A stretch of 64,000 bases of DNA from an uncultured delta proteobacterium (GTDB lineage Bacteria; Desulfobacterota; Desulfobacteria; Desulfobacterales; JAFDCJ01), in assembly GCA_963769935.1 (NCBI GenBank), contig CAVYNY010000011.1, positions 224,001 through 288,000 of the forward strand. The letters run 5' to 3'. Position numbers and translations under genes: made by a program. This document shows positions 39,800 to 61,534 of this stretch, piece after piece. Position 1 is the stretch's first letter. Every line of letters starts with the position of its first letter. A model generated the notes under the pieces. It worked only from the letters and a program-made list of their open reading frames with translations. It made no database searches and was not told where the DNA came from.

Positions 39800-41728
39800 C
39801 TACAGGATGATCCGGCCGGTTTTTTCCGTGCTGTATCCGCCCAACTCTTCTGCGCGGCGCTTAAATTCGCGGCTATTGATGGTTTCAAGCATCAGCCGAA
39901 TATTATCCGATTCAAAGTGGGCCAGCGGGATGATCAAATCATATTGCTCCGTGACCACCGGAATAAATTCAAGATTCAGCGCTTTGGCGGCGGCATAAAT
40001 TCCCAGACCGGTATCCACCGTACCGCTGAGGACTGCCACCGCCACGGCCATGTGCGTGAACTCTTCATGCCGGTAGCCGACGATAGCCTCCGGATCGATG
40101 CCGATTTGGTTCAGACGATAGTCAAGCAGAATCCGGGTGCCGGAACCCGGCTGGCGGTTGATAAATGCGATATCTTTGCGGGCCAGATCTTCGATGCCCT
40201 TAATGCCCTTGGGATTTCCCCGTCCAACAATCAACCCCTGATCGCGGTAAACCAGATTGACCAGTTTTACATCAAGTCCCGCTAAATATTTCGCAATATA
40301 GGTTACATTGTACGAGCCGTCTTCGGTATCCAGCAGATGCGACCCCGCCAGGTGGCAGGCACCTCTCTTGATGGCCATCAATCCCCCCATGCTTCCGACA
40401 TGGCTGGAAGAAATGGTCAGGTGGCTGTGTTTAGCCTTGATCATGTCGGCCAAGACATCCAGCGTGTTATCGTGGCTGCCGACAATGACAATGGTATTCT
40501 GCACGGAAGAAAGCGGGCGCAGCAACTCAGCCACGGCCGTCTCGTTATCTTTTAACCCTTCAATATGGTTTGGTATGCGAATGATGCCGTCGGCTTCGGT
40601 GATTGAGGTAATACAGCCGGCCCCTCTGGGCAGGGGAGTTGCCACGATCCGGTCGCCGACCTGTCCGAGCTTTACCCGCAAGAATTCCTCGACGCCGAGT
40701 TTGGAAGCAATTTTTCGAGTGGGTTCAACCTCAATCGTTTGAACAGCAGGGTCGGGTTGTCCCAGCATTCGATTGAGTATGGGGCGAACGAACTGTTCAA
40801 AGGCAATGATAGCCGACACCGGATATCCCGGAATGCCGAATACGGGTTTGCCGCGCACGGAGCCGATTACCACCGGTTTGCCGGGCATAATGGTAACGCC
40901 ATGCACCAGAACCGTGCCGAGGTCCAAGATTACGCTTTTGGCAAAGTCTTCCGAACCGGCCGAAGATCCACCCAGCACTAAAATCATTTGATAATCTTCA
41001 TTAACGGCCTGATCCACCACCTGTTTGATCTTGGCCGGATCATCTGCCAGCATTTCATGGCGGATGTAAGCTCCACCGAATTTTTCGACCAGGCTGCCCA
41101 GCATAAAGGAGTTGGTTTCGAGCACCTGACCGGGCTTGAAGCTATCGAGCGGCCGGGTGCGCCAGTCGAAAAGTTCCGATCCGGTAGGGATGATCAGAAT
41201 GCGCGGTTTTTTTTTGACCGGGACTTCAAATATCCCACCGGTCAGAAGGGCGCCTACACAATAGGGGGTAATGACATGATTTTGCGGAAAAAGAAGCTCG
41301 GTTGCCACCATATCTTCACCCACCTTGCGCACATTCTGCCAGGGAAACACCGGCTTATCGATTTCTACGCGCTCATCGTCTACCAGATTTACCTGCTCGA
41401 TCATGATCACGGCATCGGTTTCCCGCGGCATCACATTTCCGGTGTTCACATAAAAAGCATCACGATCGATCCGGAGCCCTTTGACGGCGGCCTCACTGGC
41501 CCCGAATGTAACTTCGGCCTTGACGGCCAGGCCATCCATAGCGGCCGCATTAAAATGAGGCGCAGAAATTCCGGCATACACGGGTTCGGCCAGCACCCGT
41601 CCAACCGCCTGCGGAACAGAGATTTTCTCAGCTGCTGGAAAATTCTCTCCGGGAAAATGCGCAGCGACGATTTGCCGGGCTTCCTGCAGGGTTTTCATTT
41701 CTAAATAAACGTTGCGTTTAGATCCCAT
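39800..41728 (-). CDS. moeA: Molybdopterin biosynthesis protein MoeA fused to a PBP/LysR-type substrate-binding domain
   Basis: AAMDGLAV, TGSEL, GGSSAG, GIPGYPVS; C-terminal GSHD, GSMGGL, INRQPGSGTR. Confidence 0.9.
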   Translation of the reverse strand: MGSKRNVYLEMKTLQEARQIVAAHFPGENFPAAEKISVPQAVGRVLAEPVYAGISAPHFNAAAMDGLAVKAEVTFGASEAAVKGLRIDRDAFYVNTGNVMPRETDAVIMIEQVNLVDDERVEIDKPVFPWQNVRKVGEDMVATELLFPQNHVITPYCVGALLTGGIFEVPVKKKPRILIIPTGSELFDWRTRPLDSFKPGQVLETNSFMLGSLVEKFGGAYIRHEMLADDPAKIKQVVDQAVNEDYQMILVLGGSSAGSEDFAKSVILDLGTVLVHGVTIMPGKPVVIGSVRGKPVFGIPGYPVSAIIAFEQFVRPILNRMLGQPDPAVQTIEVEPTRKIASKLGVEEFLRVKLGQVGDRIVATPLPRGAGCITSITEADGIIRIPNHIEGLKDNETAVAELLRPLSSVQNTIVIVGSHDNTLDVLADMIKAKHSHLTISSSHVGSMGGLMAIKRGACHLAGSHLLDTEDGSYNVTYIAKYLAGLDVKLVNLVYRDQGLIVGRGNPKGIKGIEDLARKDIAFINRQPGSGTRILLDYRLNQIGIDPEAIVGYRHEEFTHMAVAVAVLSGTVDTGLGIYAAAKALNLEFIPVVTEQYDLIIPLAHFESDNIRLMLETINSREFKRRAEELGGYSTEKTGRIIL

Positions 41729-41947: not shown

Positions 41948-43174
41948 TTACAGCGGAATCACCTCCACCTCGGCACCTTTATCCAGCCCCTCCGTATTCA
42001 TGCCGATTTCGATCAGCCCGTCTGCTTTTACCATGGTATTGATTAACCCCGATTTGCCTAAAATGGGTTCGGCCCACCGGATTCCCTCATTATGGTATGT
42101 GCGGACGCGAATATAATCCACCCGGCCCTGAGCCGATGCGATGTTTCGGCTGAGTCGGGCGGTCAGCCGCGAATCCCTTGCGGCTGCGCGACAGCCGCTG
42201 ATGTGATCAATAAAGGGCCTGACAATACGTGCAAACACAATCATGGCGGAAACCACATGTCCGGGCAATCCCCAGAACGCCTTGTTTTTTATTCCGGCCA
42301 AAATTGTCGGTTTGCCCGGGCTGATGGAAATTCCGTGAAACAGGATGGCGGCGTCTTGCATTGCGGATATGACGTCGATGGTAAAATCGCGGGCGCCCAC
42401 CGAACTGCCCCCGGATACCAGAACCATATTGCACTGGTTCAAGGCCTGGGTGCTTTTTGCCAGCAGCGCCTGGTAGTCATCGGGCACAATTCCAAATTGT
42501 ATCGGCCTGGCCCCCGACTCCTGAATCAATCCCGCAAGGGTATAGGTATTGATGTCACGTATCCGGCCCGGTCCGGGAACCTCGCCCACGGGGACAATTT
42601 CATCTCCGGTGGAAATGATGCCGATAATCGGTTTTTTATATACCGTAACCACCTGACTGCCCAGCGCCGCCAGCATGCCGGCTTCCTGAGGTCTGATGCG
42701 GCGTCCGCCGGTCAGGGCAATTTCACCTTTTTTAAGGTCTTCGCCAACCGTCACCATATTCTGGCCGGGTGCAACACTGCGGTACACCTCAATGGTGGTA
42801 TTATCGATGGCCTCAGTGTGCTCCAGCATGACAACGCTGTCGGCGCCTGCCGGCAGCATGCCGCCGGTTGAAATCCGCACGGCTTCACCCGGTCCTATCG
42901 AGATTTTTGGAGAAACTCCCATGGCTACGGTTCCGGTTACAGTCAGATATGCCGGATTGCCTTCACTGGCGCCAAAGGTGGATGATCCTTTGACTGCAAA
43001 ACCGTCCATGATCGAACGGGAAAAATCCGGCAGATCGATGTCGGAGCGGATATCGGTCGCCAGTATTCTGCCCCCCGATTCCGTCAGGGGAATACTTTCG
43101 GTCGGCATGAGCGGAAACAGCTGCCTGTATTCGAGGACCTGATCGATTGTTTTAACTTTGAAAAATTCTTTCAT
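41948..43174 (-). CDS. moeA: Molybdopterin molybdotransferase MoeA
   Basis: SIMDGFAV, ISTGG, STGDEI, SGGSSVG, PGKPT, GLPGH. Confidence 0.92.
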   Translation of the reverse strand: MKEFFKVKTIDQVLEYRQLFPLMPTESIPLTESGGRILATDIRSDIDLPDFSRSIMDGFAVKGSSTFGASEGNPAYLTVTGTVAMGVSPKISIGPGEAVRISTGGMLPAGADSVVMLEHTEAIDNTTIEVYRSVAPGQNMVTVGEDLKKGEIALTGGRRIRPQEAGMLAALGSQVVTVYKKPIIGIISTGDEIVPVGEVPGPGRIRDINTYTLAGLIQESGARPIQFGIVPDDYQALLAKSTQALNQCNMVLVSGGSSVGARDFTIDVISAMQDAAILFHGISISPGKPTILAGIKNKAFWGLPGHVVSAMIVFARIVRPFIDHISGCRAAARDSRLTARLSRNIASAQGRVDYIRVRTYHNEGIRWAEPILGKSGLINTMVKADGLIEIGMNTEGLDKGAEVEVIPL

Positions 43175-47338: not shown

Positions 47339-48496
47339 TTACGAGCTGTGAGCTTTTGCAGGTATTCGGATCAGCTGGATCGCGCAAAGCGACACCAAGG
47401 CCATCATGGCTCCGCCGAAAAATGGTATGCGGTAGTCGACCATCCACAGCACGCCGCCTAAAGCCGGCAAAAAAACTGCGGCAATATGATTGATGGTGAA
47501 ACCGACTGCCATGCTCGGGGCAATGTCTCTGCGGTCGCCCACCTTTTGGAAATAGGTGCGAATGGCAATGGCAAAGTTAAAAAATATGTGATCCAGAATA
47601 TAGAGGGCGGCAATCAGCAGCTTGGATGTTGTGGTGGCATAAGCCAGAAAAATGAGAATCAGACTGAAATATTCCAGCGATAAAACTTTTCTCTCGCCAA
47701 AGCGTATAATGCTTCTTCCGATCAAAGGGCTCAGATAATAATTGATGGCATTGTTGATGACAAATAGAATTGTGATTTCTTGAACGGAGTATTTGAATTT
47801 CTGCACCATCAGCAAAACGGCAAATGCCATAAAAATCTGGCGCCGGGCCCCGGCCATGAAAGTCAGAAAATAAAAGAGCCAGTATTTTTTGCGCAGAATC
47901 ATTTTTTTGTGTTGCGGGATCAGCGTCTTGTCTGAAGGGTCCTGCAGCAATCCCCAGAACCCCGCGACGAAAGTCAGACCGCCAATCAGCAGGTAGATCC
48001 CGGCAAAATTCATTACAAACGCTGCAAAATAAATCAAAATTCCGACTGCGATGTTGGATGCCGCCGCAAAACTGCGTTGTTTGCCGAAAACCCAGGGTGA
48101 TGTTCCCTGATCGAAGTACTGAAGCGTCAGGGACATGTTGGTAGTTTCAAAATAATGAAAACCGAAGCTCATCACCAGGGTGGTTGTCATCAATCCGGCA
48201 TAGGATGGAAACCAACCGGTAATTGCCAGACCGAGACCCAGAATTAAAATCGAAAGGGCCGAAAGGCGATGCTCTTTGATGAACATGATTACGAAGACGG
48301 CCAACAGCGCCAGAAATCCCGGAATTTCTCTGACGGATTGTATCATTCCAATTTGATTTCCGCCCAGCCCGGCGACATCAACAGCAAAATTGTTAAACAA
48401 CGTGAGCCAGGTCTGCAACCCCATGGTTGAACAGATTGTAAACACAATCAGGTATCGGTACATGGGATCTTTTTTTGCTTTTTCGATATGAATCAT
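47339..48496 (-). CDS. MFS transporter
   Basis: Multiple TM helices; REIPGFLAL, GARRQIF, FTINHIAAV. Confidence 0.8.
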   Translation of the reverse strand: MIHIEKAKKDPMYRYLIVFTICSTMGLQTWLTLFNNFAVDVAGLGGNQIGMIQSVREIPGFLALLAVFVIMFIKEHRLSALSILILGLGLAITGWFPSYAGLMTTTLVMSFGFHYFETTNMSLTLQYFDQGTSPWVFGKQRSFAAASNIAVGILIYFAAFVMNFAGIYLLIGGLTFVAGFWGLLQDPSDKTLIPQHKKMILRKKYWLFYFLTFMAGARRQIFMAFAVLLMVQKFKYSVQEITILFVINNAINYYLSPLIGRSIIRFGERKVLSLEYFSLILIFLAYATTTSKLLIAALYILDHIFFNFAIAIRTYFQKVGDRRDIAPSMAVGFTINHIAAVFLPALGGVLWMVDYRIPFFGGAMMALVSLCAIQLIRIPAKAHSS

Positions 48497-48537: not shown

Positions 48538-48854
48538 GGTTCAAAATGATGAACCTCGGTATTAAGTCTATTTTCAATTACTTAAGATCCTATTCATGAG
48601 TCTGACCGACTGCGGTTCAAAATTTTGAATTTTACGCCATAGTAAAAAACTGCTTTAAAAACAAGTACTTTATCAAAATTTAACCCTCAAGGGTTAAAAA
48701 TTGTGAACCCAAACAGCGGTTCAACCGGTCTGCCGGCCACTATGAAAACGTCGCTTTTTTTTGGCATAAAATTATATCTTACTGAATTTAAATGGGATAT
48801 AAATATTTTTTCCTTGGCCGGCCTTTTTAATTCTAATTTGGCAAGTTTATTGCA
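48538..48854 (+). promoter_or_regulatory. Unit 1: three GGTTCAAAATTTTGAACC-like palindromes (48538, 48614, 48692) and sigma54 promoter TGGCAAGTTTATTGCA (48839-48854)
   Basis: Palindromes 76 and 78 bp apart; GG-N10-GC. Confidence 0.75.
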
Positions 48855-48864
48855 GGATACTATG

Positions 48865-48939
48865 CCAGCCTAATAATTTGTTCATCTGTTCTCCTCCTTA
48901 ACGGCCGATTGGCTAGCCCCCAATCAGCCGTTTTTTTTT
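48865..48939 (+). ncRNA. Candidate sigma54-dependent small RNA, copy 1
   Basis: Starts about 12 nt after the -12 box, contains CTCCTCCTT, ends in a hairpin plus T9. Confidence 0.65.
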
Positions 48940-48965
48940 GATGATTGGCTGCGGAATTTAGCGGA

Positions 48966-49276
48966 AGTTCAAAACTTTGAACCTAATATAAATAGTAATT
49001 TAAGTTAGTTATAAGCTATTCCCTCAGACGGCAGGACCGGGTTCAAAATTTTGAACTTTAGGGACTAATAAGAAAATGCTTTAATAACAGAAGGTTTTCA
49101 AGTTTTGCCGGCAGCCGGTTAAAAATAATGAACCCAAGCGCCGGTTCGAAAGCCTGCAGTTCTGCTTGGCGATGCGATCCGATCTTTTTTTAGATTTTTA
49201 ACTAATTGAATTATATAGGTATAATTAATATTTTAAATTTATTTATTTTTTTCTTCATTTTGGCAGATAATTTGCA
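48966..49276 (+). promoter_or_regulatory. Unit 2: three palindromes (48966, 49040, 49117) and sigma54 promoter TGGCAGATAATTTGCA (49261-49276)
   Basis: Same layout as unit 1, offset by 422-428 bp. Confidence 0.75.
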
Positions 49277-49286
49277 TTAAAATATC

Positions 49287-49371
49287 ACTAAAGAAATAAA
49301 GCCTAATAATTTCTTCATCTGTTCTCCTCCTTAACGACTGATTGGCCAGCCCCCAATCAGTCGTTTTTTTT
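49287..49371 (+). ncRNA. Candidate sigma54-dependent small RNA, copy 2
   Basis: 59 of 64 core nt identical to copy 1; perfect ACGACTGATTGG/CCAATCAGTCGT stem plus T8. Confidence 0.65.
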
Positions 49372-49506: not shown

Positions 49507-50346
49507 ATGATTATCGATTGTCACACCCACATTTTCCCGGCAGATGTGCAACAGAACCGGGATCAATATTTTCAGGCAGAGCCGAACTTCAAACTATTAT
49601 ACCAGTCTCCCAAATCCAAGCTGATCGGGGCCACGGAACTGTTAAACGCCATGGATGAGCACGGGGTGGACAAATCGGTTATTTTCGGGTTCCCATGGTC
49701 CGATACCGATACTTATCGATTCCACAACGACTACATCATGGAAATAGTTCAAAAATATCCCCACCGGTTTATCGGCCTGGGATGTTTCGATCCGGCAGAT
49801 GTACAGGCTTTGGCTGAAACCGAACGGTGCCTGGCCGGAGGCCTTTCCGGCATCGGCGAACTGGCGTTTTATCGGTCCGGTATTGACGAATCCGCCCTGG
49901 AGCAGCTGGCTCCGATTATGAAGATCTGCTTAAATCGCGGCCTGCCGGTTTTAATTCATACCAATGAACCTGTGGGACATCACTATCACGGGAAAACTCC
50001 GATTACGCTGGCCCAGATTTACCAACTCATTAAACGATTCCCGGACAACAACATTATTTTGGCCCATTGGGGCGGCGGCCTGTTTTTTTATAGCCTGATG
50101 AAAAAGCAGGTTAAAGAAAGCCTTAAAAATGTCTATTTTGACACGGCCGCTTCTCCGTTTCTTTATGATGCCGCAGTATACCGCGTCGCCATTGAGCTGA
50201 CCGGCGCCGACAAAATCCTTTTCGGTACGGATTTTCCCCTGCTGCCGCCGGCAAGATATTTTAGCGAGATGGATCAGGCTGGATTAAGCCCAGCGGAGAT
50301 CGACCAAATTTGCGGTTTGAATGCGAAAGTGCTGCTTTCGCTTTAA
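49507..50346 (+). CDS. Amidohydrolase family protein (amidohydro_2)
   Basis: IDCHTH, GIGEL, VLIH, LAHWGGG, YFDTAA, LFGTDFP. Confidence 0.88.
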   Translation: MIIDCHTHIFPADVQQNRDQYFQAEPNFKLLYQSPKSKLIGATELLNAMDEHGVDKSVIFGFPWSDTDTYRFHNDYIMEIVQKYPHRFIGLGCFDPADVQALAETERCLAGGLSGIGELAFYRSGIDESALEQLAPIMKICLNRGLPVLIHTNEPVGHHYHGKTPITLAQIYQLIKRFPDNNIILAHWGGGLFFYSLMKKQVKESLKNVYFDTAASPFLYDAAVYRVAIELTGADKILFGTDFPLLPPARYFSEMDQAGLSPAEIDQICGLNAKVLLSL

Positions 50347-50368
50347 TCTTTTATCAAGGAGGATCTTC

Positions 50369-51697
50369 ATGAACAAATCAGTGGTCGCCATCGTATCCTA
50401 CGATAAACCTAAAGAATCCGTGCGCCAAGCCGTCGAACTTTCCCGCGGTCTGGATCACCTGCCGGCCGGGGCCAAGGTGTTTATTAAGCCCAACATTGTC
50501 TTTTGGACCAAAGCCGTTCCCTTTCCCAAGTGGGGCGTTATCACCACCTCCCGGGTAGTGGAGGACATGATTGTGATTCTCAAGGAGCGCGGCATCGATG
50601 ACATTACCATCGGCGAAGGGACCGTTACCATGAATCCCAAAGACCTGACCACTCCGGCCCATGCTTTTGAAACCCTGGGTTACGGGAAATTGAAGCAAAA
50701 ATACGGCATTAAATACGTGAATATATTCGAACGGCCGTTTAAAAAGATGGATCTCGGCGACGGTGTCGAGCTCCGGTTCAATACCGATGTTCTGGCAAGC
50801 GATTTTGTAGTGGATCTGCCGGTAATGAAAGCCCACAATCAGACCGTGGTCAGTTTGGGCATCAAAAATTTAAAAGGACTGATCGACGTCTCCTCCCGCA
50901 AAAAATGCCACAATATGACACCCGGTAGGGATCTGCACTTCTGGGTGTCCAAACTGGCCGACCCAATGCCCCCAATTTTCACCCTTATCGACGGTATTTA
51001 TTCCAACGAACGGGGTCCCGGTCCGGACGGCAAATTGCGCCGGACCAATCTTCTGGTGGCATCGGCCGACATATTGTCGGCCGATCTGGTAGGTGCCGCA
51101 ATTCTGGGGTATCAACCCGAACAGGTGCCGCACCTGGTACATGCGGCCCAACACCGCGGTCGTCCCTGCGACCTTTCGGACATCGAGGTCGTTGGCGAAC
51201 GCATCGCAGACGTGAAACGGCCGCACGAATATGATTTCAGCTACAGTGAAACAGATGAAGTAATTCTCCCGACCCCGCTGGCAAAACAGGGAATTAAAGG
51301 TGTTTTTTATCACAAGTACGATTTATCAATGTGCACGTATTGTTCCGGTGTCAACGGTTTGATGATTTCTGCTATTCGGTTTGCCTGGAAGGGAAAACCC
51401 TTTGATGATGTGGAGATTCTCACCGGTAAATCCATGCAGCCGACACCCGGCAAGAAAAAAACGATTTTAATGGGCAAATGCATTTACCAGGCTCATAAAG
51501 ACAATCCTGCTATCCAGGAGGCCATACCCATCAAGGGTTGTCCGCCCAAACCCGAAGATATGCTGAAGGCCTTGCAAAAAGCCGGCATTGAAGCCGATCC
51601 GGGGCTGTTTGAAAACATCGATCATCTGCCCGGGTTTTATATGGAACGGTACCGGGACAGGCCCGAGTTTGATGAGGGGTTTTTTCAGATAAAGTAG
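50369..51697 (+). CDS. DUF362 domain protein with C-terminal Cys motifs
   Basis: VFIKPN, LPVMKAH, SLGIKNLKG, IDGI; CTYC, GKC, GCPP; AAGGAGG RBS. Confidence 0.8.
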   Translation: MNKSVVAIVSYDKPKESVRQAVELSRGLDHLPAGAKVFIKPNIVFWTKAVPFPKWGVITTSRVVEDMIVILKERGIDDITIGEGTVTMNPKDLTTPAHAFETLGYGKLKQKYGIKYVNIFERPFKKMDLGDGVELRFNTDVLASDFVVDLPVMKAHNQTVVSLGIKNLKGLIDVSSRKKCHNMTPGRDLHFWVSKLADPMPPIFTLIDGIYSNERGPGPDGKLRRTNLLVASADILSADLVGAAILGYQPEQVPHLVHAAQHRGRPCDLSDIEVVGERIADVKRPHEYDFSYSETDEVILPTPLAKQGIKGVFYHKYDLSMCTYCSGVNGLMISAIRFAWKGKPFDDVEILTGKSMQPTPGKKKTILMGKCIYQAHKDNPAIQEAIPIKGCPPKPEDMLKALQKAGIEADPGLFENIDHLPGFYMERYRDRPEFDEGFFQIK

Positions 51698-60130: not shown

Positions 60131-61534
60131 TCAACCTATGTCCGATTTGAACAATTCAACCGAATTAATCCTCACATCCAGCAGCTCCGCAACCTTGAGC
60201 TTGGCCCGCATGCCTTTCGGACTGCCGGCCACAGAGGTGATGATGCCGATTCCCAGGTCCTCCCTGACCTGTCGCATGACTTCCTCGTTGGTCAGGTCCG
60301 AAATTTCAACTGCCAGTTTTTTTGCCGCATACTGCTTTGCTTCGGCCAATTTCATTTTTTTGATCAGCTGCAGCCAGGCCACCAGATCTCCGGAGGTCCG
60401 GATGCCGCCCATGCCGGAAGCAAAAATATGCGCCAGGTGCATCCCGAAAGGATCGCCGACGCCAATCTACAAACCGTCGGCTTTGCCGATCTGTACCAGC
60501 GATTTCGATGCCCGGGTGACGCTGTCGATCGGCGGTGCTTCCAGCATCGGCACCCCGCCGACGCCCATGCCGACGTTTACATGCACCGGTATATCGACCG
60601 CCGCCACGGCCGCTTTGACGAATGTCAGGCTGCGGGCGATGTTCCAGGCCGTGGACTGATTCGTGTTGGTGCCGACGGCCACCCCGAAGATGCTGGCACC
60701 GGCGGCTTCGGCCATGCGGGCCTGGTCGTGGGGGTACATTCCGGCCAGCTGCCGGCCGTTAAAGGTCATCTCGCCGTGCATCCCCAGAACAAATTCGCCC
60801 GCACCGCCCAGAATGATCGGCATGTCCGGCGCCGCTTTTCTCAAATCACCGACGGCTTGCAGCGCTGCTAAAAAATCGGCATCGCCCGCCGAACCGGCCG
60901 TATCGAAGTTGAGGCCCTCACAGCCGATGCGATCAAGTTTTTTGCCGACGAAAACCAGATCCTGGCGCAGCTGGGCGGCGGCGGCCTCCTGGACCTCCTG
61001 GGCTTCTTTGATTTTGCCCCCGGCCAGAAGATCGGCCGGATTTTGGTGGGGACCGTCCGGTTGAAAATATAATCCCATGTTGGGCTGGGCCCCGTACAAA
61101 AACGGAGCTGTGGTCATCATGGAAATCGTGTAGTACTCATTCATCTCGGAATTGACGATGGGTTTAACCGGTTTGAAGCTGTAATCGCTGTGGCCCATGG
61201 AGGTCGTATCCGCCGCACAGGCCCGCTCATAGGTCAGGATCGCCTGCATGCGGCTCATGGATACGCCGACACCGCCGCTGTCCTGCCCGGAATAAAAACT
61301 CATCGAGCAACCGTCATCCGTGACAATCACCTCCCGACCGGGTTCGACACTGACGGCCCGGGACGGCTCGGCCAGGATATCAAAGAGTGCTTCCATCTCG
61401 TCGGGGGTGAGTTCGGGAATTTCAGCACGCTGCGCCGCTTCCCGGCTGGCGGCCTGAATATCTTCCTTAACCTCTTCGGATGCCATCAAAACCCGCTCGC
61501 CGTCACCCATCCGGATTATAATTTTATCCTTCAT
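60131..61534 (-). CDS. mtbB: Dimethylamine:corrinoid methyltransferase, 467 aa with pyrrolysine at in-frame TAG (codon 356, 60467-60469)
   Basis: RMGDG N-terminus, DYSFKPVKP, YGAQPNMGLY, GMGVGGVPM; ADGL-[TAG]-IGVGDPFGM continues in frame to TGA at 60131; GGGAGA RBS. Confidence 0.93.

Follow-up and report, generated by a model that had tools for sequence, protein, structure and literature searches.

Predicted tandem small RNA genes with sigma-54-type promoters and complementarity to porin starts in the Desulfobacterales

We analysed a 64-kb window, the whole stretch of 64,000 nucleotides (nt) taken from contig CAVYNY010000011.1 of an uncultured Desulfobacterales bacterium, whose 8.0-Mb, 96.7%-complete genome assembly we call G000. 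Between positions 48450 and 49480 this window holds two tandem units on the plus strand, each with an enhancer array, a sigma-54 promoter and a short conserved repeat. We consider it likely that the two repeats are small RNA (sRNA) genes, driven by sigma-54 together with an NtrC-type regulator, and that their RNAs block the translation of porin mRNAs. The neighbouring genes encode an MFS transporter, an Amidohydro_2 protein and a DUF362 protein, and the order MFS - sRNA - Amidohydro_2 - DUF362 is kept across the genus.

Anatomy and strand of the two units

The direct repeat is 72 nt long (48867-48938 and 49300-49371) with 93% identity between the units, and in unit 1 it starts, at 48867, at the transcription start predicted from the promoter. 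The repeat is far beyond chance, because its 22-nt core occurs twice in the window whereas 0 occurrences are expected from 100 shuffles. A sequence scan and a covariance model found exactly two copies of the core in the 8.0-Mb genome, both in the window. An initial annotation had described the reverse complement of both repeats as a Shine-Dalgarno (SD) sequence followed by ATG-AA(C/G)-AAA-TTA-TTA-GGC, and this minus-strand read-out is right in all details (CGGCCGTTAAGGAGGAGAACAGATGAACAAATTATTAGGCTGG for copy 1, CAGTCGTTAAGGAGGAGAACAGATGAAGAAATTATTAGGCTTT for copy 2). On the plus strand the units contain the following features.

48538..48708, plus strand: enhancer (upstream activating sequence) array of unit 1, made up of three palindromic boxes at intervals of 76 and 78 nt, GGTTCAAAATGATGAAC (48538-48554), GGTTCAAAATTTTGAAT (48614-48630) and GGTTAAAAATTGTGAAC (48692-48708)
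48839..48854, plus strand: sigma-54 promoter of unit 1, TGGCAAGTTTATTGCA, with -24 GG and -12 GC, a match to TGGCA-N6-TTGCW
48865..48939, plus strand: predicted sRNA 1, about 75 nt, its presumed start 12 nt past the -12 GC
48869..48902, plus strand: seed of sRNA 1, CCUAAUAAUUUGUUCAUCUGUUCUCCUCCUUAAC, which reads as anti-codons 2-6, anti-AUG, spacer and anti-SD and lies in invariant or near-invariant, unpaired columns
48900..48939, plus strand: intrinsic terminator of sRNA 1, a 13-bp stem (48900-48932) with a T-run that starts inside the 3' arm of the stem and ends at 48939
48966..49133, plus strand: enhancer array of unit 2, boxes at 48966-48982, 49040-49056 and 49117-49133, spaced 74 and 77 nt apart
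49261..49276, plus strand: sigma-54 promoter of unit 2, TGGCAGATAATTTGCA, a match to TGGCA-N6-TTGCW
49287..49371, plus strand: predicted sRNA 2, about 85 nt, with the seed at 49302-49335 and a terminator stem at 49333-49365 followed by a T-run

The two promoters, both perfect in sequence, are the only matches to TGGCA-N6-TTGCW in the 64-kb window, and they lie 13 and 25 nt ahead of the conserved repeats. The enhancer box is a 17-nt palindrome, GTTCA-N6-TGAAC, with the consensus GGTTCAAAATTTTGAAC, present three times per unit at intervals of 74-78 nt. Of 13 strand-wise matches in the window, where 0.38 would be expected, 12 come from these six boxes, which form the sole box cluster in the 8-Mb genome. 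The predicted RNAs fold into a long unpaired 5' part, a 13-bp hairpin and a run of 8-9 U, with z-scores of -3.7 for sRNA 1 and -5.6 for sRNA 2, and both hairpins scored as terminator-like on the plus strand in a simple terminator scan. A covariance model of the family scored sRNA 1 at 87.5 bits (E = 7e-16) and sRNA 2 at 92.9 bits (E = 4e-17).

The strand was assessed by comparing 30 homologous units, drawn from 28 genomes within the genus and the order. All 30 carry TGGCA-N6-TTGC on the same strand, at 27-45 nt ahead of the core. Alignments A1 and A2 show little or no variation over a 34-nt stretch, CCUAAUAAUUUCUUCAUCUGUUCUCCUCCUUAAC, that stays unpaired in the consensus fold. The sequence of the hairpin varies while its pairing is kept, with compensatory double changes in 9 of 13 pairs across the 30 sequences. 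When the stem is read as plus strand, its wobble cells comprise 22 G-U as opposed to 8 A-C, and the T-run always lies 3' on this strand.

The minus strand holds two short reading frames (mini-ORFs), which the initial annotation had located and translated correctly:

48847..48885, minus strand: mini-ORF MNKLLGWHSILQ followed by a stop, considered a by-product of the seed rather than a gene; the frame crosses the sigma-54 promoter
49277..49318, minus strand: mini-ORF MKKLLGFISLVIF followed by a stop, likewise judged a by-product and not a gene, with no promoter-like site upstream

The minus-strand frames of the 30 units, which overlap the sigma-54 promoter, have only MKKLLG in common; they then show no similarity, and their total length runs from 6 to 43 codons. 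Five consist of MKKLLG and a stop, and one of MRNYQA and a stop. None of the 30 units has a reading frame conserved in length or sequence beyond the nucleotide conservation, as would be expected of a small protein or a dual-function RNA. A promoter scan found two sigma-70-like sites on the minus strand, against 3.5 expected, and neither lies upstream of a mini-ORF. We therefore regard the mini-ORFs as non-coding, since only MKKLLG is shared and the lengths then vary from 6 to 43 amino acids (aa). The promoter, the invariant unpaired seed, the covarying stem, the polarity of the T-run and the unconserved frames together argue for plus-strand sRNA genes with the mini-ORFs as by-products. The proposal that the minus strand encodes tiny peptides with cis-antisense RNAs thus found no support, because the frames are not conserved past codon 6 and the signals all face the plus strand. 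The ribosome-binding site, ATG and MKKLLG on the minus strand are a mirror image of the target site.

Family members and a candidate activator

Rfam gave no gathering-level match at the locus; relaxing the threshold to E = 10 added only chance-level matches, none of them to Qrr, and the best reached 21.7 bits where the gathering score is 80. Using our own covariance model, R1, we found the family in 47 of 61 related genomes (E ≤ 0.001), with 20 of 22 in the rest of the genus and 26 of 38 in other families of the order. Some of the weakest of these matches are the antisense of porin start regions and not sRNA genes. Outside the order, about 145 genomes of the phylum were sampled and R1 matched 2, one of which (G153) has a sigma-54 promoter and a related seed. 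A scan of public species genomes for the exact core returned 119 stretches, nearly all labelled Desulfobacterales, and the named carriers include Desulfosarcina alkanivorans PL12, Desulfatitalea alkaliphila, Desulfonema, Desulfatibacillum and an Olavius symbiont. In these public stretches, 105 of 121 core matches have a strict sigma-54 promoter 26-41 nt upstream. Boxes are present in 84 of 86 non-redundant units, two or more of them in 75, and they lie 140-160, 220-240 and 290-310 nt upstream of the -24 element. A search of open-access papers found no description of this Desulfobacterales RNA, nor of an sRNA acting on a DESULF_POR1-type porin.

Some loci depart from the arrangement in the window. 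One public contig (L140) carries three tandem sigma-54 sRNA units about 560 nt apart, against two in the window. A second sRNA class with an identical 22-nt seed occurs on contigs of public Desulfobacterales metagenome-assembled genomes (L035, L060, L065, L069, L078, L079, L092, L126, L142 and L147), in the same genomes as the sigma-54 class. It differs in its 5' part, CUGCAGCCUACAGACC, and its terminator, GGGCGACUC...GAGCCGCCC, and upstream it has a conserved sigma-70-like promoter (TTGACA-N17-18-TAT-rich) and no sigma-54 promoter. The core scan did not find this class in G000. Two further loci in the genus, L280 (G001:C40:32050-32260) and L281 (G005:C5:13370-13580), have a diverged seed and a terminator without a sigma-54 promoter, the seed following directly on an apparent coding-region end (...CTGGAATGA/TAA). 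This element is possibly a paralogue derived from a 3' untranslated region in these two genomes.

In three other families (L025, L028 and L031), a gene for a protein with response regulator, Sigma54_activat and HTH_8 domains lies immediately upstream of the sRNA on the same strand, with a convergent TPR gene and a PfkB gene on the far side. When R1 matches were set against the list of regulator orthologues, the sRNA was found 200-800 nt downstream of the orthologue, on the same strand, in 14 genomes (G011, G023, G026, G031, G032, G036, G039, G042, G043, G044, G052, G053, G054 and G055). Although G000 has 61 sigma-54 activator paralogues (E ≤ 1e-30), a single one is clearly orthologous to this regulator, C10:100441-101820, with 71% identity and 682 bits versus 405 bits for the next paralogue. 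Upstream of it is a HisKA/HATPase kinase with a 250-aa N-terminal part that received no domain assignment. The C10 locus has the same convergent TPR and PfkB genes, with a pilMNOP cluster nearby; there is no sRNA at this site, and the copies in G000 lie only in the window. In the wider region, C10:95000-110000 (L163), the putative kinase/regulator pair sits between the PfkB-TPR pair and the pilM-pilN-pilO-pilP cluster, and a Fur-FeoA fusion protein and a metallophosphoesterase are also encoded near it. NCBIfam offered no specific equivalog for the regulator, all scores being below cut-off.

rpoN is present in G000, and the whole genome has 114 strict TGGCA-N6-TTGCW sites. At the sequence level, then, the family combines a -24/-12 promoter at a fixed distance, enhancer sites and an adjacent regulator gene, the features of a sigma-54-dependent sRNA. 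It is the gene adjacency in relatives that suggests that the regulator may bind the boxes. We saw no sign of feedback, as the mRNAs for the regulator, kinase and TPR protein ranked beyond 1800 as pairing partners of the sRNAs, and the regulator mRNA beyond 6000 of 6526.

Complementarity to porin starts and to other genes

We scanned the 61 genomes for complements of the seed, allowing up to 3 mismatches in 20 nt. The scan returned the sRNA genes and, in addition, gene starts that are nearly all of envelope proteins, with near-complement sites at SBP_bac_3, DctP, TctC, TauE, OmpA-family, multihaem lipoprotein and MetA-pathway outer-membrane protein genes. The group that stood out consists of mutually related proteins of 406-510 aa with a signal peptide, a start of MKKLLV... 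and a C-terminal ...SF. They match only one model, NF033939 (DESULF_POR1, 'outer membrane homotrimeric porin'), with E = 6e-29 and 2e-12, below the model's cut-off. By its family name, we take the namesake of DESULF_POR1 to be the DVU0799-type major porin of Desulfovibrio. PMC5686591 describes a homotrimeric porin of 466 aa, and neither 'sRNA' nor 'small RNA' is mentioned anywhere in its text. A profile built from eight members found the family in 25 of the 61 genomes.

Pairing energies were calculated with RNAduplex, and the controls were eight shuffled seeds in which CUCCUCCU, the anti-SD, was kept in place. The porin mRNA of G050, UUAAGGAGGACAACAGAUGAAGAAAUUAUUGG, is complementary to the seed at 31 of 32 nt (-44.8 kcal/mol). 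Over 28 porin starts, the consensus seed gave means of -28.7 kcal/mol for the 17 from genomes with the sRNA and -24.8 kcal/mol for the 11 from genomes without it, whereas the shuffles averaged -15.9 and -16.2 on the same starts. Relative to the 6526 start regions of G000, 21 of the 28 fell in the top 1%, and 25 of 28 beat all eight shuffles. Seeds also paired better with the porin starts of their own genome, with a mean of -33.5 versus -27.6 for the seeds of other genomes; the own seed beat the mean of the others in 16 of 17 cases and came first of 16 in 5 of 17. In G044, for example, the seed reads GUUUUUCUCC instead of GUUCUCCUCC and the porin reads GGAGAAAAAC, which leaves at least 27 uninterrupted pairs. 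As in a MicF-like RNA, an unpaired seed is thus complementary to a porin SD and AUG beyond generic anti-SD pairing, and the co-variation between seed and target is supportive, not decisive.

A stretch of 6 kb in G023 (G023:C1:618983-624858) carries the regulator, the sRNA (620769-620845) and a TPR gene, and on its minus strand a DESULF_POR1-like porin is encoded at 623317-624858, 2.5 kb away from the regulator-sRNA pair. The porin frame contains one in-frame TGA.

A further match came from a sediment metatranscriptome, X1 (6% of sampled words). It contains a 1355-nt contig with a word depth of about 50, which has no more than 31 nt in common with the seed region (49305-49335), with one difference. 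Read in the opposite sense, the flanks of this contig, AACTTTCT-TTAAGGAGG...ATGAAGAAATTATTAGGT..., resemble the porin starts of G004 and G046. This contig may be an expressed, target-like mRNA of another organism.

In G000 itself, 6527 genes were called by a simple home-made model of codon use and SD sites, and both seeds were scored against positions -35 to +25 of 6526 starts. The first percentiles were -24.0 and -24.7 for the real seeds and -22.3 to -24.1 for the shuffles, so that the distributions are nearly alike, and genome-wide the target scores of the seeds could not be told from those of the shuffled anti-SD controls. A crude hydrophobicity rule called 16.7% of all G000 genes signal-peptide-like. 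Such genes made up 31 of the top 100 and 80 of the top 300 for the copy-2/consensus seed, 22 and 63 for copy 1, and 12-23 and 51-68 for the eight shuffles. The enrichment of signal-peptide genes that had been anticipated is therefore present, weakly, for the copy-2/consensus seed, but for copy 1 it stays within the shuffle range. A genome-wide ungapped scan of G000 for complements found no site longer than 19 nt besides the sRNA genes. The only near-complement site outside these genes is C28:38849-38868, at the start of an ABC-type ATPase gene (MGLIVAENITKDY...); it reads GTTAAGGAGAAAAACATATG, is 17/20 complementary to the seed core, and is absent from the 25 best starts listed per seed.

The initial annotation had proposed the nearby DUF362 gene as a target on account of two blocks of complementarity:

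50356..50378, plus strand: DUF362 start region, AAGGAGGA (50356-50363), tcttc and ATGAACAAAT (50369-50378); a genuine match, but judged coincidental

RNAduplex, applied to copy 1, recovered both blocks, of 8 bp and 10 bp, at -23.3 kcal/mol. This start ranked 133 of 6526 for copy 1, while copy 2 reached only -17.1 (rank 1139 of 6526), and one of the eight shuffled controls reached -22.4. In five relatives with the same gene order the energies were -7.7 to -19.8. We rejected DUF362 as a target and consider the match coincidental because its rank is unexceptional and the pairing is not conserved in these relatives. The neighbouring MFS and amidohydrolase starts also pair poorly (-3.6 to -16.9).

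Proposed circuit, alternatives and precedents

The anatomy of promoter, enhancer and terminator, the covarying stem, the adjacency to a regulator and the complementarity to porins in relatives emerge from sequence and comparison, and they suggest the following circuit. A two-component signal would activate the NtrC-type response regulator, likely the orthologue of the G000 protein at C10:100441-101820. Bound to the three phased GTTCA-N6-TGAAC boxes, the regulator would open the sigma-54 promoter, and RNAs of about 75 and 85 nt would be transcribed up to the intrinsic terminator. Their 34-nt unpaired 5' region could then form a duplex of 20-30 nt with a porin mRNA, covering its SD, AUG and first codons. 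Such pairing would prevent ribosome binding, and hence initiation, on mRNAs of outer-membrane porins, and a few other envelope mRNAs might be paired likewise. We infer RNA production, activation by the regulator, translational repression and the identity of the target in G000 from these features. The long complementarity would fit pairing without a chaperone.

A bolder form of this proposal is conceivable but doubtful. In it, a whole two-component/sigma-54 pathway would have a single genomic output, a chaperone-free (no Hfq) antisense copy of the 5' end (SD, AUG and codons 2-6) of the major porin gene, which would have arisen by antisense capture and co-evolved with its target across the order. 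The circuit would then be a one-wire switch of outer-membrane permeability, and the sigma-70-type sRNA class would provide a second, independent input.

Several results weigh against the porin circuit. The energies depend on gene starts from a home-made caller and on RNAduplex, which ignores accessibility, and the best energies in G000, -31.9 and -31.5 for the real seeds, lie within the range of the shuffles (-28.0 to -34.3). The Wilcoxon test for the advantage of own seeds (p = 3e-5) overstates the result because the genomes are related. The porin family was found in only 3 of the 22 genus genomes although 20 of the 22 carry the sRNA, and some genomes that yielded no sRNA nevertheless have complementary porin starts: G046 (-37.6), G029 (-31.0) and G027 (-29.7), the last of which is 100% complete. 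The target site thus appears to be conserved for its own reasons, and it is the RNA that matches the site, not the reverse. Of the 14 genomes without the sRNA, 10 still carry the regulator orthologue, and Hfq (PF17209) was not found in the 96.7%-complete G000 assembly. In the metatranscriptome X1, a 236-nt contig covers 48941-49175 and the sRNAs themselves are uncovered, which argues neither way as to their transcription. Finally, a DESULF_POR1-like porin was not detected in G000 by tblastn with eight proteins, two single-protein searches, a hidden Markov model search at E up to 10 or the profile. Since that family was not found, the best candidate targets in G000 would be two ExtI/Porin_O_P-like genes, C17:28083 and C38:36134. 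It speaks for the circuit that these are the only G000 genes that match the ExtI (NCBIfam) and Porin_O_P / Opacity porin (Pfam) models and that for both sRNAs they rank 1 (C17) and 3 or 4 (C38) of 6526, compared with 14-711 for the eight shuffles. Their orthologues occur in only 2 and 1 of the 22 genus genomes, and the pairing there is uneven, at -28.5 and -20.9 for the C38 porin and -17.5 for the C17 gene.

We considered whether the RNAs might instead act broadly, in the manner of GcvB, and repress many mRNAs of exported proteins with the start AUG-AAR-AAA-UUR, porins not being the main target. The signal-peptide counts of the consensus seed exceed those of the shuffles, relatives have near-complement sites at many envelope gene starts, and the invariance of all 34 nt suggests several targets. 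However, the counts for copy 1 stay inside the control range, the energy distributions hardly differ from those of the shuffles, pairing past codon 3 needs UUA leucine codons, and extended, co-varying pairing is seen in the porin family only. The envelope matches are also biased, because a strong SD followed by ATGAA favours highly expressed envelope genes that start with MK. We consider such a broad role unlikely. The initial annotation had suggested that the RNAs block mRNAs of exported proteins starting M-K/N-K-L-L; what stands of this is narrower, a single co-varying porin family, and the broad GcvB-like preference is weak. A further possibility is that the RNA mainly binds a protein, the ribosome or a 16S region as a sponge or mimic, for instance through the repeated GCCUAAU or AU-rich motif. 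Some of the homologues do carry the CCUAAU motif twice, the seed looks like a lengthened anti-SD, and Hfq was not found in G000, but a protein-binding motif would not predict a complementarity that spans the spacer, AUG and codons 2-6 of porins and co-varies with them, which makes this role very unlikely.

The position of the units could also suggest cis-acting leaders or attenuators, through which sigma-54 would control the downstream amidohydrolase-DUF362 operon by terminator read-through. The gene order is indeed kept genus-wide, and unit 2 ends about 135 nt ahead of the amidohydrolase ATG at 49507. However, unit 1 is followed by the enhancer of unit 2 and not by a gene, the terminator combines a strong stem with a long T-run and no alternative anti-terminator fold was seen, and pairing with the two downstream starts is weak or unconserved. 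Moreover, there is no conserved downstream gene, because in other families the RNA sits between the regulator and the convergent TPR gene. We regard this explanation as extremely unlikely. Nor do we give more than a slight chance, bordering on negligible, to the idea that the minus strand encodes tiny peptides (MNKLLG.../MKKLLG...) and that the plus-strand RNAs are their cis-antisense regulators. All copies do have a strong SD, ideal spacing and an ATG, and in Desulfovibrio small hypothetical ORFs are annotated opposite similar RNAs. However, besides the lack of similarity past MKKLLG, the overlap with the sigma-54 promoter, the absence of promoter-like sites upstream of the frames and the G-U wobbles that favour the plus strand, the two window copies encode different amino acids at codon 2, no U-tail follows the hairpin on the minus strand, and nothing convergent bears on the locus.

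In its wiring, the predicted porin circuit resembles that of Qrr in Vibrio. The Qrr RNAs are multi-copy sigma-54 sRNAs activated by LuxO, whose gene often adjoins a copy; they have an intrinsic terminator and a conserved, unpaired stretch through which they bind mRNAs around the start of translation. The window family shares the small multi-copy sRNA, the sigma-54 promoter, the adjacent NtrC-type regulator (in relatives), the unpaired pairing region and the terminator, and its enhancer motif, as in the Qrr/LuxO system, apparently has no targets besides the sRNA genes. In contrast to Qrr, it has the palindrome GTTCA-N6-TGAAC in three copies about 77 nt apart, no Rfam Qrr match, no predicted feedback on the mRNA of its regulator, porins instead of master regulators as predicted targets, and no Hfq found; its regulator scores 380 against a cut-off of 800 for NCBIfam LuxO. 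GlmY of the Enterobacteria, which acts as a protein decoy, is likewise a sigma-54 sRNA, controlled by the two-component regulator GlrR at three upstream sites. The sigma-54-type promoter, the three sites and the predicted two-component regulator of the window family are similar, whereas its sRNAs are predicted to pair at start regions and have no sequence similarity to GlmY, and its regulator scores 360 against a cut-off of 763 for NCBIfam GlrR.

In its predicted action, the family is like MicF, MicC, MicA, RybB and NcS25, which are trans-encoded and have an unpaired region complementary to a porin SD and AUG, here with a predicted ribosome block. It differs from this group in that the window sRNAs have no sequence or Rfam relationship to it, a sigma-54/enhancer-type promoter and complementarity of up to 31/32 nt. 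NcS25 of Burkholderia represses the porin BCAL3473 according to the accessible part of PMC10117139; the same part reports no sigma-54 motif upstream of ncS25, and we rejected NcS25 as a sigma-54 precedent. In Desulfovibrio vulgaris, which belongs to a related phylum-level group, an sRNA gene (Dv_sRNA2) just downstream of the sigma-54 regulator gene DVU0679 is the mapped target of that regulator, and the same holds for DVU0653 (Rajeev et al. 2011, PMC3333781, in part); the function of Dv_sRNA2 is stated there as unknown. The regulon table of Kazakov et al. 2015 (PMC4641369, in part) includes both non-coding RNAs (ncRNAs), and in the accessible portions of the two papers no target is proposed for them. 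The DVU0679/DVU0653 ncRNAs are the closest described relatives in kind, by analogy of genomic arrangement, an sRNA immediately downstream of an NtrC-type regulator gene (in the relatives, not in G000), and not by sequence comparison. The window sRNAs, in short, are wired as Qrr/LuxO and predicted to act as MicF and other porin repressors, and they are members of neither family.

Elsewhere in the window, Rfam matched PYLIS_2, the pyrrolysine insertion sequence of mtbB, at 60370-60469 on the minus strand (68.8 bits, E = 1.7e-14), and G000 probably encodes a pyrrolysine-containing dimethylamine methyltransferase. At 39800-41728, also on the minus strand, lies a gene for a 642-aa protein with the N, MoCF_biosynth and C domains of MoeA and a C-terminal PBP_like domain, next to a second, plain MoeA gene at 41948-43174.

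Sulfate reducers of the Desulfobacterales dominate the turnover of carbon and sulfur in marine sediments, and to our knowledge almost nothing is known of their RNA regulators. Sigma-54 activators are very numerous in these bacteria, as the 61 paralogues of G000 illustrate. The family is absent from Rfam, so that model R1 and alignment A2 are a direct gain for annotation, and the mini-ORFs with a ribosome-binding site and ATG opposite the seeds can be seen not to warrant annotation as genes. The locus yields a complete predicted circuit, from kinase and response regulator through three boxes and a sigma-54 promoter to an sRNA and a porin start, and for the class of ncRNAs downstream of sigma-54 regulators, known from Desulfovibrio, it offers a possible function.

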